The notes: generated by a model from the sequence alone, not told the origin. DNA of 15,110 nt from Promethearchaeota archaeon (GCA_016839585.1 JAEOTZ010000087.1:1-15110), one strand, 5' to 3'. Shown: positions 1 through 12,344, numbered from the stretch's first letter. A program made the numbers and translations.

Positions 1-37
1 AAGGTAACAATAAATTAACTTCTACAATAGGAATAAA

Positions 38-2974
38 ATGATTAAAGATCTCTCTGAGACCAAATCCGATTTGACTTGTGAAGAATGTGGTGAACCCATA
101 AAACAAAATCAAATAGACAATAAACCTATATATTGTGAATTTTGCGGTGCTCTAAATAGCTCTGTAGATTCGCAACATCCAGAAAAATCACAACTAGAAC
201 AGGAAAGAATAAGGTTTTCTTATACTACTCAAGAATTAAGCCAAGAAATTAGAAATCTTATCTATCAGAAGATTTATGAATTGATGAAAGCGAATTTTTC
301 AATCATGAGCCGTTTAAAGCACCTAGAGGATCTTAAACAATCGCAAATATTAAAACTGGTTAAAAAATTACGAAGAGCATTATTATTTCTTTCCCTTCCT
401 TCCAACAGTACTGAGTTGCTGACTAAGACCTCAAAGAAAAAAATTGAAAATTATTTTGAGGACTTCCAAGCAAGCTTAAAAAAGAAGAAAAAAAATCAAT
501 CCAGTTATCTGCCTTATTTGATAAAAAATATCAAATTCATTTATAGATTAATCAAGGGAGATTTTGAATTCTCAACTCTTGCTAAATATAATCAGAAAGC
601 AGTGAAAAAATTAAAAACAAAATACGGATTTAAAATCAATCCTAAAAATATAAACTCATTCTCTTACTCTTTATCAATACTCCTGTGTAGAAAAATATAT
701 AAAATTATCACAGCTCAGGGGCATGTCTTAGATTTAAAACACAGTAAAAATGAATTAACTAAACAATATATATTAAACACTGCTAAAGATATAACAGCCT
801 TAATTTTAAATAATAATTTCAAGCAAAATTTCTCTAAAGCATATAGAGAACTAAAAAAGGACCTCGAAATCGATTGGGTTTACCGTGAAAGCTTTATTGA
901 ACATGTTTGCTCATTAATTAAACTTATCTATAAATTAGCATATAATAACGGCTATTCCTCTAGACTTAGAGGATTTCAAAAATTAGTTGCTGAAAGTTTA
1001 AAAGAAAGTAGGTTCTTTGAAGATAATACTACTTTTTCACCCTATTTTAAGGTCAATTTAGCTTTGATTCTAAGTAGAATTATTCACTATGCTCTTGAAT
1101 CATCCCAAAATTTAACTCCGCTACAATCTGACCCCAGAAAATTGAATAAAACCGATAATTTAAGAGTCGCAACTGAGATTTTAGATGAACTTCTTGCTGA
1201 TAAAAAAATTAAATCAGAATTTTTAAAGCAGTTTTATAACTTCTCTTTAGAAAAATTTCAAGAAGAATATGAAAATTTACAAGCAAAATTAAAATCTGAT
1301 ATGATCTATAAAGAAAACTTTCTATCGTTTATAAAAAAGCTTACAAATACGGTTTACAAAATCACTCACACCAGAAGTAAAAAATCGAGTCACTCAAAAA
1401 TAGAACTGGGAATTATTAAAGATCTCGCCAATTATAACTTTAATTGGGAGTCTTTCAAAAAAGAAAAATCTTGCTTCTACTCAGAGGAAAAAAATAAAAG
1501 TTATGATATATTTACCACTGAGATTCCAGAAAATAGTCTATTATGGCGTGTTCGAGCTTATATAATAGGTTTGCTTCTTGCCGACGGTAATATCCATAAA
1601 AATAAATTTTCAATTAGCCAACATAAAAAAGACTATGACCTTCTTTTAATTGCTCAAATGGCTCTTGGCGGAAAAATTAAACATGTTGGAGATAAAATCT
1701 TTAGATTATATCAAACTAATAAAAATTTAGTGGAACAATTAACAAGATATGGTATGGTTGAAAGACACTCGAAAAAGGAAGTAGCAAAATTTCTTCAAAT
1801 TCCAGATTATATCATAAAAAAAATAAATTTTATAACATTAATTAGAGATTTTGTAAGGGGTTTTTATGATGGTGATGGATGGTTTATTAGTACATCATCA
1901 AATGTCATGATGTTTGGTATAAATGGATCTCAGAATTTTTTAGAGTCAATAAAGGAGAAAATATTATTAGAAATTCCTAATCTATCAATCAATATTTATC
2001 CTTCTTTTAGAAGAGTATATATTGAAGGAACTAAAAAATACTTTGTGTTTTCTAAAAATAGGATATATATTCCGGGTTTTGGTGAACATTTGTTAGAATC
2101 AGAAGATTTAGAAAAAGGTAAAATAGTTAGAGAACAACATCCTTGGTTAAAAAGAATGCATATCGCTGGAAAATACAATTGTATTAAGTTTTTCAATTGG
2201 CTCTATTCAAATAATGACTTTTTCGATACTATCAAGATTGATGGGATTCATTTATGTGGAAAGCGAAAATTTCAGAAAGCATTAAACTCTTTAGGAGATT
2301 ATAACAAAAGAAAAGAAATTTTAGCACCTATTTGGAAAGATAGCCTTCGAAACATCGTGCAAATCCTTGAAAATCGCTTTTATACTTCAAAAGAACTAAT
2401 GGTTTTAACAAATAATTGCTTAATGAACATGTTAAAAGATTTGAAATTATTAAAATTATATCAGAAAAATAAAATAAATAATGTAAGTGATTTTAATAGA
2501 GAATTAAAGAAGATTGAACTTTTAGAAGGCTCCTTGATTAGTTATCAAACAAGATTGGGTAGAAGCAATGTAAATTACTATTTTAGCACCGCTTACACAT
2601 TATCAAAAATACCTGATAATTATCATAGAAAAATAGATTTAATTACGAGAAAAGGGAATCCAAAAAAAATTCTGAAGAATCTTATAATACATCTTTTCAT
2701 CTCTAATAATAAGGGTTATGAATTTAAAGAATTAATAGAAATTTTAAATGATTATAATATATTTAATCCAACTACATTAAGGCCAAATAGGATTATATTA
2801 GATATCGCAGAATTAAAGAATTTTGATATAATAATTGAAGATGATAAAGATATTGAATTATATGAACATCGTTTCGTTCTTAACATTTCTCTTTTACCCA
2901 AATACTATAAAATGGAATTAAATAAACTAAAAAAGGAATTAGAAAAGTTATTTAAATATAAAAAAAATCTTTAA
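38..2974 (+). CDS. Multidomain double-motif LAGLIDADG endonuclease-like protein (N-terminal Zn ribbon, three ~120-130 aa helical repeats, LAGLIDADG core, putative C-terminal winged helices)
   Basis: 978-aa ORF with AGGA just upstream. CEEC...CEFC at aa 14-36. LAGLIDADG motifs AYIIGLLLADG (aa 507-517, nt 1556-1588) and DFVRGFYDGDG (aa 604-614, nt 1847-1879). The domain ends in a typical CIKFFNWLY...RKF segment. Confidence 0.85.
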   Translation: MIKDLSETKSDLTCEECGEPIKQNQIDNKPIYCEFCGALNSSVDSQHPEKSQLEQERIRFSYTTQELSQEIRNLIYQKIYELMKANFSIMSRLKHLEDLKQSQILKLVKKLRRALLFLSLPSNSTELLTKTSKKKIENYFEDFQASLKKKKKNQSSYLPYLIKNIKFIYRLIKGDFEFSTLAKYNQKAVKKLKTKYGFKINPKNINSFSYSLSILLCRKIYKIITAQGHVLDLKHSKNELTKQYILNTAKDITALILNNNFKQNFSKAYRELKKDLEIDWVYRESFIEHVCSLIKLIYKLAYNNGYSSRLRGFQKLVAESLKESRFFEDNTTFSPYFKVNLALILSRIIHYALESSQNLTPLQSDPRKLNKTDNLRVATEILDELLADKKIKSEFLKQFYNFSLEKFQEEYENLQAKLKSDMIYKENFLSFIKKLTNTVYKITHTRSKKSSHSKIELGIIKDLANYNFNWESFKKEKSCFYSEEKNKSYDIFTTEIPENSLLWRVRAYIIGLLLADGNIHKNKFSISQHKKDYDLLLIAQMALGGKIKHVGDKIFRLYQTNKNLVEQLTRYGMVERHSKKEVAKFLQIPDYIIKKINFITLIRDFVRGFYDGDGWFISTSSNVMMFGINGSQNFLESIKEKILLEIPNLSINIYPSFRRVYIEGTKKYFVFSKNRIYIPGFGEHLLESEDLEKGKIVREQHPWLKRMHIAGKYNCIKFFNWLYSNNDFFDTIKIDGIHLCGKRKFQKALNSLGDYNKRKEILAPIWKDSLRNIVQILENRFYTSKELMVLTNNCLMNMLKDLKLLKLYQKNKINNVSDFNRELKKIELLEGSLISYQTRLGRSNVNYYFSTAYTLSKIPDNYHRKIDLITRKGNPKKILKNLIIHLFISNNKGYEFKELIEILNDYNIFNPTTLRPNRIILDIAELKNFDIIIEDDKDIELYEHRFVLNISLLPKYYKMELNKLKKELEKLFKYKKNL

Positions 2975-2982
2975 AAAAAAAA
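2973..2982 (-). terminator. Oligo-T (T10) archaeal-type terminator of acs
   Basis: A10 run on the + strand, read as T10 on the minus strand, beginning 5 nt after the acs stop codon at the convergent junction. Confidence 0.5.
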
Positions 2983-2987
2983 TAATA

Positions 2988-4970
2988 TTAACCAACTTCT
3001 ACATCCATCTTTTTCCGTTCTTCAAGCAAGGCATCTACTACGGAAGGATCGGCTAATGTGGTTACATTCCCTATTTCTGTTCCAGCTGCAATTGCTTTTA
3101 GGATTCTTCTCATAATTTTGCCACTTCGCGTCTTAGGTAACGCATCCGCAAATTGAATTACATCTGGCTGAAATACGGGACCTATCTCTTTTCTAACATG
3201 CATCCGAATCTCTTTGGATAGTTTGGCTGATTTTTCTACCCCCTGCATTAATGTAATGTAAGCCCAGATGGCCTGCCCTTTAATTTTATGCGGAAATGGA
3301 GCGACAGCGGCTTCTGCGACCTTTGGATGACTTACAAGAGCAGATTCTACTTCCATAGTTCCTATTCGATGCCCACTTACTTTAATGACATCATCTAATC
3401 GCCCAAGAATCCAATAATAACCATCTTCATCTCGTCGTGCTCCATCACCAGTATAATAGTATCCAGGATATTTTTCAAAATATGTTGATTTAAATCTCTC
3501 TGTATCACCCCAGACATCCCTTAACATTCCCGGCCAAGGTTGAGCTATAGCAAAATAGCCTCCCTCATCTGGTTCAGTAACTTCATCACCCTCGAGGTCG
3601 AATATAATTGGCTTAATACCTAAAAATGGCATGCAGCAGGAACCCGGTTTAGTTGGCGTTGCTGTAGCAATTGGTGTCATTATAAAGCCCCCTGTCTCTG
3701 TTTGCCAGTAAGTATCAACAATTGGGGCTTTACTTTTGCCGATTATATTAAAGTACCATAACCAAGCTTCTGGATTTATTGGTTCTCCAACAGTTCCTAA
3801 AACTTTTAAAGAACTTAGGTCATGTTTTTTAACTGGTTCATCTCCATATCTCATCAAGGCACGAATTGCTGTAGGGGCAGTATAGAAATGAGTTACTTTA
3901 TTACGTTCTACAATATCCCAGAATCTATCCACATCAGGATAAGTCGGAACTCCCTCAAACATTAATGTAGTTGCACCATTAGCTAAAGGTCCATATACTA
4001 TATAGGAGTGACCGGTAATCCAACCAATATCTGCAGTACAGTACCAAACATCACCATCATGGTAATTAAATACGATTTTATGTGTAAACGACGTAAATAA
4101 TATATAACCTGCAGTTGTATGTTTAACACCTTTCGGTTTTCCAGTTGTTCCACTTGTATATAAAATAAATAAAGTATCCTCAGAATCCATTACTTCAGGT
4201 TCGCATTCATCGCTCATCCCTTCAATAAAATCGTGATACCAAATATCCTTATCAGTATGCGGGACTTCTCTTCCAGATCGTTTTACTACGATAACATGCT
4301 CCATTGTTGGAACATCATCAATAATTTGAATCACATCAGCTATTTTTGGATAGAATTTCCCTGCTCTTAAGGTTTCATCGCTGGTGAATAAGAGTCGTGA
4401 GTCAGAATCATCGATTCGGTCCTTTACAGCTTCTTTTGAGAAACCACCAAAAACTATAGAATGAATAACTCCAAGGCGAGCACAAGCAAGCATTATTATT
4501 GCTAATTCAGGAACCATAGGTAACCAAATTGTTACACGATCTCCCTTTTTCAAACCAAGTTTTTTCATACCATTGGCAACTTTATTGACTTCTTTTAATA
4601 ATTCTGTGTAAGTATAAGTTTTAACATTTCCTGGCTCGTCAGCTTCCCAAATAAGAGCCACTGTATCGCCTTTTCCAACTTTTATATGCCGGTCTAAACA
4701 GTTGTAAGCAACATTTAGTTTACCTCCGACAAACCATTTACCAGGAAACAAATCTGTTTTTTCCCATACTTTTTCATAAGGCTCGAACCAGTCAAGAGAT
4801 TTCGCTTGGTCATCCCAAAAACCTTCCATATCTTCAATTGATTGTTTGTAAAGTTTCTCATATTCTTCTAAAGACATGCCAGATTTAACAAATTCCTTGT
4901 TTAACTTAATAGGATCAAAAATGCGTGTTTCAGTAAGAATACTTTCCATCTTTTTGTCTTCTTCAGACAT
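2988..4970 (-). CDS. acs: Acetate--CoA ligase (AMP-forming acetyl-CoA synthetase)
   Basis: 660 aa with ANL motifs YTSGTTGKPKG, WYCTADIGWITGHSY, DTYWQTETGG, GRLDDVIKVSGHRIG and PKTRSGKIMRR (acetylatable Lys618, nt 3117-3119). SD-like GAAGTGA upstream. Confidence 0.97.
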   Translation of the reverse strand: MSEEDKKMESILTETRIFDPIKLNKEFVKSGMSLEEYEKLYKQSIEDMEGFWDDQAKSLDWFEPYEKVWEKTDLFPGKWFVGGKLNVAYNCLDRHIKVGKGDTVALIWEADEPGNVKTYTYTELLKEVNKVANGMKKLGLKKGDRVTIWLPMVPELAIIMLACARLGVIHSIVFGGFSKEAVKDRIDDSDSRLLFTSDETLRAGKFYPKIADVIQIIDDVPTMEHVIVVKRSGREVPHTDKDIWYHDFIEGMSDECEPEVMDSEDTLFILYTSGTTGKPKGVKHTTAGYILFTSFTHKIVFNYHDGDVWYCTADIGWITGHSYIVYGPLANGATTLMFEGVPTYPDVDRFWDIVERNKVTHFYTAPTAIRALMRYGDEPVKKHDLSSLKVLGTVGEPINPEAWLWYFNIIGKSKAPIVDTYWQTETGGFIMTPIATATPTKPGSCCMPFLGIKPIIFDLEGDEVTEPDEGGYFAIAQPWPGMLRDVWGDTERFKSTYFEKYPGYYYTGDGARRDEDGYYWILGRLDDVIKVSGHRIGTMEVESALVSHPKVAEAAVAPFPHKIKGQAIWAYITLMQGVEKSAKLSKEIRMHVRKEIGPVFQPDVIQFADALPKTRSGKIMRRILKAIAAGTEIGNVTTLADPSVVDALLEERKKMDVEVG

Positions 4971-9950: not shown

Positions 9951-11222
9951 CTAAAGGTCTAAGCGTTTTTTCTTCGCAAACAAGTCTTTTAATTCATCTA
10001 GAACCCGTAATCTTGTATTTTCCCTTGCTCCTACTTTAGCTTGATCTGGGTTAGCAATTCCTATTGGTACGCCACTTTGAGCCATTTGAAATGCTCCTGA
10101 TTCTATAGCTCGAAGGCGGCTATCGATATCATTTAATTGTTTAGCCAAACTTTCAGAGAGCCGTATAATGACATTCATCGTTTCTTCTAATGTCTTACCA
10201 AGACCATCTACCTTTCTAAGTGTGGGATCAGCTAAAGAATGAGTATCACTCATTATTTTTTTTATATATTTAGCAAATTGAGGTTCATGGGAAATCATTG
10301 AATAGATAGAAGTTAAATAAATCTCTACATCAAAAGTAAAATCTTTCTTTTGATATAGTTGATTTAATTTCTCCTTTAAGAGCTCAATATTCAATAAAAT
10401 TTCAGGATCTTTCTTCAAATCAGGATCAAATTTGTGTATAAAAACTATAATATATGGATTCTCTTCTAAGGCTATTATTAAATCAATAACTTTATCATAA
10501 TAGTCTAGTGCTTCATCAAATCTATCTGGATCTTGGACATCAATAACATAAATTAAAAGATCTAATTGTAAAAAGTATTGTTCTGGATTTTCTAAATATC
10601 TTGATCTGTATTCCTTTTGACCTCCTAAATCCCAGATATAGAGGGAAAGCTTGTCACTACCCACATTCATTCGATAAACTCCTTTTGTTGGCTGTGTCTT
10701 GATCAAATCACTTACACCTAAACGTCCTCCTAGTTTGGATAAGGAGGCTGTTTTGCCAGCATTATCTAGTCCTGCTACTACAATTTTTTGTGCTTGAGTT
10801 CCAAAGTCTTTTGTATCAGCTTCAAGATTTGTAATTATGGAACTTATTGTAATTGCTTTTTTCAAATTTCTTTCAAGTGTAGGATATTTTTCTTTAAGCT
10901 CCTCGATTTTTATTGATAAATTTTCTTTCATTTCAGATACTGTTGATGGATCCTCTGCATCTTCAAGGAATTTAATTATACTTTCAAACGGGTTTTCTTT
11001 GTTTAATTTTGAAATTTCACCAATCTTAGAAATTTCTAACAATTCTTTTACAATATTTGATTCTTCTTTATTTAAGAATTTAAATGAATGAATTGGTAAT
11101 TTTAAAATATCATCTAAAGTTTTTAGTTTGTTAATCTTAGAATCTTTAGGATCTAAGAATTTAGAAAATACATTTATCACACTAGAAAAATCTGTTTCCG
11201 TTTTAGCCATTTTAGTAATCAA
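9951..11222 (-). CDS. Arf/Rag-like small GTPase with N-terminal helical extension and C-terminal coiled coil (start may be ATG at 11210 rather than TTG at 11222)
   Basis: G1 GLDNAGKT (10749-10772), G2 PTKG, G3 WDLGGQ (10617-10634), G4 HKFD (10425-10436), G5 TSI. Confidence 0.92.
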   Translation of the reverse strand: MITKMAKTETDFSSVINVFSKFLDPKDSKINKLKTLDDILKLPIHSFKFLNKEESNIVKELLEISKIGEISKLNKENPFESIIKFLEDAEDPSTVSEMKENLSIKIEELKEKYPTLERNLKKAITISSIITNLEADTKDFGTQAQKIVVAGLDNAGKTASLSKLGGRLGVSDLIKTQPTKGVYRMNVGSDKLSLYIWDLGGQKEYRSRYLENPEQYFLQLDLLIYVIDVQDPDRFDEALDYYDKVIDLIIALEENPYIIVFIHKFDPDLKKDPEILLNIELLKEKLNQLYQKKDFTFDVEIYLTSIYSMISHEPQFAKYIKKIMSDTHSLADPTLRKVDGLGKTLEETMNVIIRLSESLAKQLNDIDSRLRAIESGAFQMAQSGVPIGIANPDQAKVGARENTRLRVLDELKDLFAKKKRLDL

Positions 11223-11420: not shown

Positions 11421-12344
11421 ATGCCATCACATTTTGAAGATGATGAATTTTTTGGGGATATAGGAGAGGAAGAACCCTCTTGTTGTGATAGTCCAAAACT
11501 GAGTCAGGAGGATGGATTCTATGTTTGCTTAAATTGTGGATTTGTATATTCGAGAATACTTGATGATAGCCCTCGCAGAGCTTTTACTCAAGAAGAGATC
11601 CAAAAAAGAAAAAGTAATGAAAGGGTTTACAGCCCAATTGGCCCAAGAACAATTATAAGAGGAAGTAGAGACGCTAGAGGAACATTATTAAGTCCAAAAT
11701 ATAAATCTAAATTTAATAGACTAGCTAAAATTCATAGATCGTTGACTACAAGTTATGAGAGAAATTTATGGATTGCGTTACCAAACCTACAACGCTTACA
11801 AAAAAGACTTGGAATTCCTGATACTGTTGCGGAGGATGCCCTTAGAATCTATACTCAAACTGTAAAAAAGAAATTAACAATGGGGAGAAGTATTGATACT
11901 TTACTTTCAGCTTCAATTTTCGCCGCCTTAAGAGTGCATGGTATTCCAAGAACAGTTGAAGAAATAACAAAGGTCGCACAGATACCAAAAAAGAAAGTTA
12001 TTAAAAGTTATAGACTAATACTCATGGAAGTACTTCCTAAATTAAATTTAAAAGTACAACATTTCTCGCCAATCCGTTATGTTGATAAATTTAATGATGA
12101 ATTAAAACTTTCTATGCAATGTAGAAATATAGCTGTTAAAATAATTGAAAAAGCTAAAGAAAGCGGATTTAACTCAGCAGGAAAAGACCCTAAAGGAATT
12201 GCTGCAGCAGCAATATATATTGGTTCAAAAATCTGCAATGAAAATCGAACTCAGAAGGAAATAAGCAAGTTAGCACGTGTTACTGAAGTTACTTTAAGAA
12301 TGAGAGTAAAAGATTTGCAAAAATATGCTAGCATTGTTGAATAA
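11421..12344 (+). CDS. tfb: Transcription initiation factor IIB (TFB), divergent paralog
   Basis: Zn ribbon CC...VCLNCG, two cyclin folds (GRSIDTLLSASIF, GIPRTVEEI; GKDPKGIAAAAIYI) and C-terminal HTH RTQKEI...VTEVTLR. Confidence 0.95.
   Translation: MPSHFEDDEFFGDIGEEEPSCCDSPKLSQEDGFYVCLNCGFVYSRILDDSPRRAFTQEEIQKRKSNERVYSPIGPRTIIRGSRDARGTLLSPKYKSKFNRLAKIHRSLTTSYERNLWIALPNLQRLQKRLGIPDTVAEDALRIYTQTVKKKLTMGRSIDTLLSASIFAALRVHGIPRTVEEITKVAQIPKKKVIKSYRLILMEVLPKLNLKVQHFSPIRYVDKFNDELKLSMQCRNIAVKIIEKAKESGFNSAGKDPKGIAAAAIYIGSKICNENRTQKEISKLARVTEVTLRMRVKDLQKYASIVE

Follow-up and report, generated by a model that had tools for sequence, protein, structure and literature searches.

What is a LAGLIDADG nuclease doing in the C-terminal half of a 978-aa protein, outside any intron or intein, in a gene whose stop codon lies 13 nt from the gene for acetyl-CoA synthetase? 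The question is raised by positions 38-2974 (plus strand) of a 15,110-nt stretch of DNA from a Promethearchaeota archaeon (GCA_016839585.1, JAEOTZ010000087.1:1-15110), hereafter the window, which is the entire 15.1-kb contig C78 of a 3.45-Mb Asgard genome (G000). The gene is a single uninterrupted frame encoding protein P0001 and has full-length homologs (P0005-P0008, P0011). An answer that we hold to be probable, with reservations set out below, is that P0001 is a homing-type LAGLIDADG endonuclease which stands free, has its home at the 3' end of the acetyl-CoA synthetase gene (acs) and is here fused behind a lineage-specific carrier module.

From the N- to the C-terminus, P0001 is composed of a zinc ribbon, three helical repeats, a LAGLIDADG nuclease and two winged helices. 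Its two halves were folded separately, each with an alignment of relatives. In the model of residues 486-978 (predicted local distance difference test, pLDDT, 93), the first 260 residues form a canonical two-domain LAGLIDADG core (aa 500-761, nt 1535-2320, plus strand), in which the order alpha-beta-beta-alpha-beta-beta-alpha occurs twice and the two domains are packed via the motif helices (residues 502-516 and 602-613). Foldseek relates this half to I-Tsp061I and I-OnuI with a probability of 1.00, and Pfam LAGLIDADG_3 gives a partial match over residues 505-543 (24.8 bits against a gathering score of 22.5), while an NCBIfam search of P0001 returned no match. The motifs are 97 aa apart (LLADG ends at residue 517, DGDG at 614) and each has the acidic catalytic residue before its last Gly. 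Both of these residues, D516 (nt 1583-1585) and D613 (nt 1874-1876), are invariant, together with the four ribbon Cys, in an alignment of six full-length or partial homologs (A1), and the ADG and DGDG consensus is retained across a 29-sequence alignment (A3). An earlier, sequence-only reading of the window had proposed two LAGLIDADG helices about 97 aa apart, both keeping the catalytic Asp, within a large Zn-ribbon/helical-repeat/winged-helix scaffold; motif spacing, invariance and fold agree with the former, and each element of the latter was recovered by modelling and profile comparison. The core is followed on the same strand by winged helix 1 (aa ~766-853, nt 2333-2596) and winged helix 2 (aa ~864-973, nt 2627-2956), the second of which is also found alone in metagenomes as open reading frames (ORFs) or fragments of 127-175 aa.

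The usual settings of such enzymes do not apply to this gene. Intein chains align to P0001 via their endonuclease domains only (1dq3 134-336, 7qsu 143-329), no Hint fold flanks the nuclease, which has helical repeats on its N-side and winged helices on its C-side, and no extein is present; an intein identity was therefore rejected. An intron-encoded identity was rejected as well, because no Rfam RNA or tRNA was matched in the window and because the gene starts independently, 167 nt away from a divergent gene, and ends 13 nt from the acs stop. The fold, Rfam and tRNA checks are thus in accordance with the previous statement that no HINT domain, host gene or RNA gene surrounds the nuclease. P0001 is best described as a free-standing single-chain LAGLIDADG endonuclease with intact active-site residues and predicted cleavage activity.

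The neighbour of the gene on its 3' side is acs itself (nt 2988-4970, minus strand; Pfam AMP-binding, ACAS_N and AMP-binding_C), convergent and 13 nt from the nuclease stop. Contig C50 overlaps the first 95 nt of the window exactly, and the synteny of relatives confirms it as the upstream neighbour. The local order is a 209-aa ORF, a divergent gene for a 1018-aa membrane-anchored Prenyltrans-like protein, the P0001 gene, the convergent acs and an acetyl-CoA hydrolase/GNAT gene. A nuclease cassette, that is, the C-terminal nuclease part, is convergent with acs in ~10 assemblies, including forms devoid of the ribbon-and-repeat part (hereafter the N-module); the arrangement is found in G000, L018, L019, L020, L022, L035 and G117 (L017, a different genus). 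Among the forms lacking the N-module, P0013 (L032) lies 60 nt from acs (86% identical) and P0015 (L033) adjoins a distant acs-like gene (40% identical), and P0010, which has a short N-terminus, is 28 nt from acs. The association with acs tracks the nuclease cassette rather than the N-module, and the acs 3' end is the conserved neighbour and the presumed target region. G129, G147 and G040, from the same genus, instead have AsnC-type regulators, ThuA or a TPR protein after acs, and synteny with this genome resumes only ~21 kb into C50, which places the P0001 gene at the edge of a variable island. In the presence/absence comparison suggested by the sequence-only reading, the cassette is beside acs in L018, L019, L020 and L022, and other genes come after acs in these three genomes.

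The cassette is also the part of the gene that differs between close relatives. When G000 was compared with L018 and L019, DNA identity to L018 was 90% through nt 1572 and 88.6% from nt 2917 through acs; in between (nt 1573-2916, plus strand) blastn found no DNA similarity to the syntenic L018 gene, save for a patch at 2138-2342 that is 70% identical. In the same comparison with both relatives, synonymous divergence (dS) is 0.19-0.37 in the flanking genes and 0.24-0.37 in the N-module, where the ratio of non-synonymous (dN) to synonymous divergence (omega) is 0.25-0.29; in the C-half dS rises to 1.1-1.9 and amino acid identity is 43-47%. The dN/dS analysis, one of the checks proposed for this gene, thus finds purifying selection on the N-module and a cassette dS far above that of the flanks. 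Since the high dS is limited to the cassette, these sequences argue that it was swapped for an anciently diverged allele and did not evolve rapidly in place. The closest cassette to that of P0001 belongs to P0010 (62% identity), despite the unrelated short N-terminus of the latter. As a side observation, the acs gene of the close relative GCA_048938025.1 (L018:8979-10991) is absent from the public gene table; its alignment takes 670-671 columns against 660-661 query residues and gives an inconsistent dN, which suggests an indel or frameshift, and the G000-L018 acs pair was for this reason ignored in the dN/dS analysis.

Displaced pieces of acs are scattered near several of these genes. On C50, ~18 kb upstream of the live junction between the gene and acs, a relic (C50:14973-15487) combines the final 75 codons of a P0006-type allele with an intergenic stretch and ~270 nt of an acs 3' end; its identity to L020 is 94.6% at the amino acid level over the 75-codon part and 92% at the DNA level, and its identity to window positions 2892-3256 is 76%. 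A second, short acs-like relic is present at C50:10363-10434. Upstream of P0013, L032 carries two acs 3' relics (906-1106 and 1952-2071), interleaved with VapB/PIN, MazE, a trypsin-like gene and a Schlafen/AlbA_2 gene, and L034 carries one (3615-3803) upstream of P0012. From these multiple displaced ends it follows that the acs 3' end has been hit repeatedly by insertion or recombination, and it looks like a recurrent site at which the incoming DNA supplies its own gene end.

The other half of the protein is less familiar. In the model of residues 1-492 (pLDDT 81), a weakly modelled ribbon is followed by three helical bundles of ~120 aa each. The four-Cys zinc ribbon (nt 65-157, plus strand) is formed by C14, C17, C33 and C36 in a CxxC...CxxC arrangement, all invariant in A1; it matches Zn_Ribbon_TF weakly (E 0.048), its profile likewise matches RNA polymerase subunit P and Zn fingers weakly, and its pLDDT is modest (~68). 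The AlphaFold2 model places repeat 1 at aa ~58-180 (nt 209-577; helices at 64-173; isoelectric point, pI, 10.0), repeat 2 at aa ~195-312 (nt 620-973; pI 9.8) and repeat 3 at aa ~322-480 (nt 1001-1477), all on the plus strand; the third is the sole repeat retained in the short-form relatives C33, C63 and P0010. The repeats are homologous to one another by hhalign (repeats 1 and 2, E 2.8e-18; 1 and 3, E 1.6e-16; 2 and 3, E 2.4e-23), and all are strongly basic, with pI values of 9.3-10 against a proteome median of 7.1. Over all pairs the N-module has an omega of 0.25-0.43, as expected under purifying selection. No family for it was found in Pfam, NCBIfam, PADLOC or PHROGs, no clear fold match in PDB or BFVD, and no description in the full-text literature searched, including PMC10691335 and PMC11529989. 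A resemblance to transcription factor B (TFB), with its Zn ribbon and cyclin repeats, gained no support: hhalign of A2 gave a probability of 2% against the TFB of the window and, for the ribbon only, 11% against a Zn-ribbon protein of 415 aa encoded ahead of another Prenyltrans paralog. A basic, repetitive, ribbon-headed module under selection, placed N-terminal to site-specific and transposon nucleases, suggests a nucleic-acid-binding tether or adaptor that would aid homing-type nucleases.

That the N-module is a unit of its own is evident within this single genome. With ~30 nt of 5' leader (window 5-1504, plus strand) it shares 87% DNA identity by blastn with two paralogs, on C75 (907 aa) and C5 (991 aa), and the similarity stops abruptly at codon ~488: residues 1-488 are ~80% identical, after which the proteins diverge sharply. 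The C75 protein continues with a helix-turn-helix (HTH) and a different LAGLIDADG, and that of C5 with a GIY-YIG-type domain, recognized through a BLAST link to P0027, which passes Pfam GIY-YIG (23.0 against 22.6 bits), and through a YIIY...YIGYT motif seen by eye. In C33 and C63, of the same genome, the ribbon and a single repeat precede either another LAGLIDADG or a Zn-rich domain of unassigned type. A PDB sequence search with the C-termini of C5 and C63 gave no match. An exhaustive search of 1.8 billion representative proteins returned 345 relatives. Among them, the C-half occurs without the N-module in P0013 (493 aa), whose start coincides with the DIFT linker, and in P0015 (515 aa), and the N-module is present in proteins of 650-1356 aa with other C-termini. 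Pfam identified LAGLIDADG_3, TnpB (P0023, P0042), HNH_3 (P0051) and GIY-YIG (P0027) among 31 such C-termini, many of which had no match, and BLAST clustering distinguishes at least 13 cassette classes behind the N-module, all joined at one acidic linker near codon 488. In P0023 (L027:4113-8183) and P0042 the N-module is fused in frame before a full TnpB (OrfB_IS605 and Cas12f-like TNB). When the N-module profile was run a second time, against longer proteins, no further named relatives were found. The scaffold in which the sequence-only reading saw the nuclease embedded exists in all its parts, but its N-terminal portion is a separable module, common to GIY-YIG, HNH and TnpB nucleases and to two paralogs in the same genome.

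The distribution of the module is narrow. In the search of 151 genomes of the phylum, matches to the three-repeat form came only from the window's own family (three copies in G000, and G117, G135 and G138), and the short form was seen in a few additional genomes of that family; three other same-genus genomes searched gave no N-module match. The family-limited hits and the same-genus gaps show that the N-module is lineage-restricted and patchy. Two short metagenomic contigs bear stop-terminated ORFs with the N-module only, at L025:166-1656 (P0033, 496 aa) and L026:873-2465 (P0025, 530 aa), which may have arisen as split forms, as empty sites or through the decay of copies; on L025 a second ORF begins 5 nt past the first, in another frame.

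A linked duplication adds to this picture. The C50/C78 and C75 loci (L011, L012; C50:225-3949, C75:5847-9563) share 5.4 kb at 88% identity, comprising the 209-aa coiled-coil-like ORF, the Prenyltrans-like gene and the N-module, and the duplication stops exactly at the nuclease junction. The duplicated Prenyltrans-like proteins have 1015-1018 aa, an N-terminal signal or transmembrane segment and a C-terminal transmembrane anchor. A divergent neighbour of this type (~1000 aa) recurs in G000 (C50, C75), L018, L019, L022 and beside the distant TnpB fusion P0023 (L027). The linkage feeds two alternatives taken up below, a host regulator invaded at its 3' end and a retargetable carrier element.

Other genes of the region deserve a brief mention. 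At G000 C75:1626-2879 (L012), the C75 paralog ends 75 nt from a convergent, conserved rps6e-rpl24e-rpoN cluster, the rpoN-like ORF of which has only 43 aa as called; such a position is what one would expect of free-standing homing genes that park next to conserved genes. At C53:3362-7431 (L010) of the same genome, a 597-aa Zn-finger/LAGLIDADG protein is encoded beside an acs-like AMP-binding gene that is 29% identical to acs and broken up into two separate ORFs (341 and 323 aa). Further along the window lie a gene whose 423-aa product has a Gtr1/RagA-Arf-like small GTPase domain (9951-11222, minus strand) and the gene for a canonical TFB with two TFIIB repeats (11421-12344, plus strand); both are features typical of Asgard archaea, and every relative examined shows them in synteny.

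According to the reading that we favour, the enzyme would make a site-specific double-strand break in or beside acs where the cassette is absent, and recombinational repair would then copy the cassette into the broken allele. Such a cut-and-copy process would explain why diverged alleles are seen at one locus and why acs 3' ends have been displaced. The two winged helices would be the nuclease's own DNA-binding tail, and the N-module a common carrier, joined to at least 13 C-terminal cassettes, that tethers homing-type nucleases. Among the options of the sequence-only reading, that of a free-standing homing element beside the acs 3' end is well supported by the acs association in ~10 contexts, the cassette replacement and the acs relics. 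Several points weigh against it. Classical homing proceeds without target duplication, and the acs relics could derive from integrase-type or one-sided recombination in a variable island. The C-terminal protein sequence of acs shows no difference between genomes with and without the cassette; its residues are nearly identical in both, and target-site polymorphism in acs was discarded as uninformative. The target in acs and its cleavage are presumed, and the function given to the N-module is one that we infer throughout. The synteny of relatives and the purifying selection on the N-module are also compatible with a vertically inherited cellular gene lost in some lineages, and an island with Schlafen/AlbA_2-like and weakly Abi_C-like genes fits a defence role too.

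An extension of the same evidence puts the N-module rather than the nuclease at the centre. The N-module unit, often accompanied by the Prenyltrans-like gene and the 209-aa ORF, would be a new modular class of Asgard mobile element that accepts plug-in LAGLIDADG, GIY-YIG, HNH and TnpB nucleases; the nuclease would set the host gene beside which the unit is parked (acs, rpoN, others), and the N-module would be a general adaptor to DNA or to the repair or replication machinery. We regard this as unlikely.

Somewhat less probable is a defence nuclease, in which the N-module would sense or bind foreign nucleic acid and the swappable nucleases would be effectors diversifying in an arms race within a variable defence island. 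Variable C-terminal effectors behind a conserved N-terminus, several copies per genome and a patchy spread would be in keeping with it, as would the allele-for-allele replacement of the specificity-determining part. The gene also borders a ~20-kb variable island with SLFN_AlbA_2 and a weak Abi_C match, and Mrr, an MmeI-like methyltransferase and toxin-antitoxin genes are found nearby in relatives. However, P0001 and the C75, C5 and C63 paralogs have no match in PADLOC (2023 library), the PADLOC matches obtained being to a generic homing-endonuclease model, for C33, and to Cas12 models, for the TnpB fusion. Moreover, LAGLIDADG, GIY-YIG, HNH_3 and TnpB are the nucleases classically tied to homing and transposons, neither a methylase nor an immunity partner lies next to the gene, and the cassette stays at acs even without the N-module. 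For the defence option, already raised by the sequence-only reading, the island context speaks in favour, and the PADLOC search gave it no direct support.

With about the same low probability, the N-module gene may be a resident host gene, for instance a DNA-binding regulator of the divergent surface-protein gene, whose 3' end homing nucleases have repeatedly invaded in frame. Purifying selection acts on the N-module, whose divergence resembles that of the flanks, ORFs with the N-module only do exist (P0033, P0025), all cassettes are joined at the same acidic linker near codon 488, and the linkage to the divergent Prenyltrans-like protein is recurrent. Events of this type have precedents in fungal mitochondria, where the rps3-LAGLIDADG and atp6-GIY-YIG fusions are in-frame invasions of the 3' ends of host genes. 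Against a resident gene, the acs association goes with the cassette and not with the N-module, same-genus genomes have no N-module match despite their Prenyltrans-like paralogs, and the ORFs with only the N-module, all from very short contigs, are possibly copies in decay.

Less likely still is a domesticated, non-selfish DNA-binding protein, be it a transcription factor of the WhiA type or a host-controlled nuclease of the HO type, that would recognize DNA via the LAGLIDADG and winged-helix surface. WhiA has lost the catalytic acidic residues, whereas both catalytic Asp are invariant here; Pfam WhiA models had no match on P0001, the DNA-recognizing part is exchanged between close relatives, same-genus genomes have no N-module match, and the scaffold also carries GIY-YIG, HNH and TnpB. 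Domestication, as the sequence-only reading had suggested with reference to WhiA and HO, is thus disfavoured by the invariant Asp, the patchy distribution and the exchange of cassettes. A polymorphic toxin was rejected, since acs follows after 13 nt and leaves no downstream immunity gene and the nuclease types are atypical for toxins; no signal peptide was seen by eye in P0001.

Compared with archaeal single-chain LAGLIDADG enzymes (I-Tsp061I, I-DmoI) and archaeal intein endonucleases (PI-PfuI, Tli VMA), P0001 lies outside an intron or intein, adds two C-terminal winged helices and a 490-aa N-module, and has elongated extra beta-hairpins in domain II. It differs from WhiA in keeping the catalytic residues and in a tail of two winged helices with no sigma-like HTH, from HO in having no Hint remnant, and from both in that N-module genes are patchy, multi-copy and provided with a swappable cassette. 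As in the fungal rps3-LAGLIDADG and Allomyces atp6-GIY-YIG fusions, the nuclease follows in frame the 3' end of another coding region, and the displaced 3' end of the Allomyces case recalls the displaced 3'-end relics near the insertion site; here, however, the relics come from the neighbour acs and not from the fusion partner, and the partner is multi-copy and patchy. The title of PDB entry 4yhx reads ribosomal protein 3/homing endonuclease-like fusion. A further likeness is with the free-standing homing endonucleases of T-even phages (compare PMC2790892 and PMC2988022), namely Seg, Mob and the I-TevI-like modular GIY-YIG and HNH enzymes that share NUMOD DNA-binding modules. There too, intergenic nuclease genes stand by themselves beside conserved genes, an accessory module of one type recurs across catalytic families, and relatives exchange flanking DNA. 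Unlike these, P0001 has a cellular host, an Asgard archaeon, and unlike NUMOD its shared module is N-terminal, much larger, without a Pfam family, and also a partner of LAGLIDADG and TnpB.

Free-standing LAGLIDADG genes were already known, and the nuclease itself is of a known kind; what neither the family libraries nor the literature searched cover is the architecture, the N-module as a shared part and its pairing with four nuclease families, and no described family was found in those libraries that spans the full architecture. The locus offers a clean natural case of specificity-cassette replacement at one chromosomal site in close relatives, and displaced gene ends accumulate at the acs 3' end, which looks like a hot spot of recombination. 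The LAGLIDADG and winged-helix cassettes are a pool of diverged nucleases, probably with long sites, and the N-module-TnpB fusions may interest engineers of compact RNA-guided nucleases. For the biology of these archaea, a module of ~490 aa without a known family or a clear fold match, common to four mechanistically unrelated nuclease families including the RNA-guided TnpB, points to an as yet undescribed common need of their homing-type nucleases.

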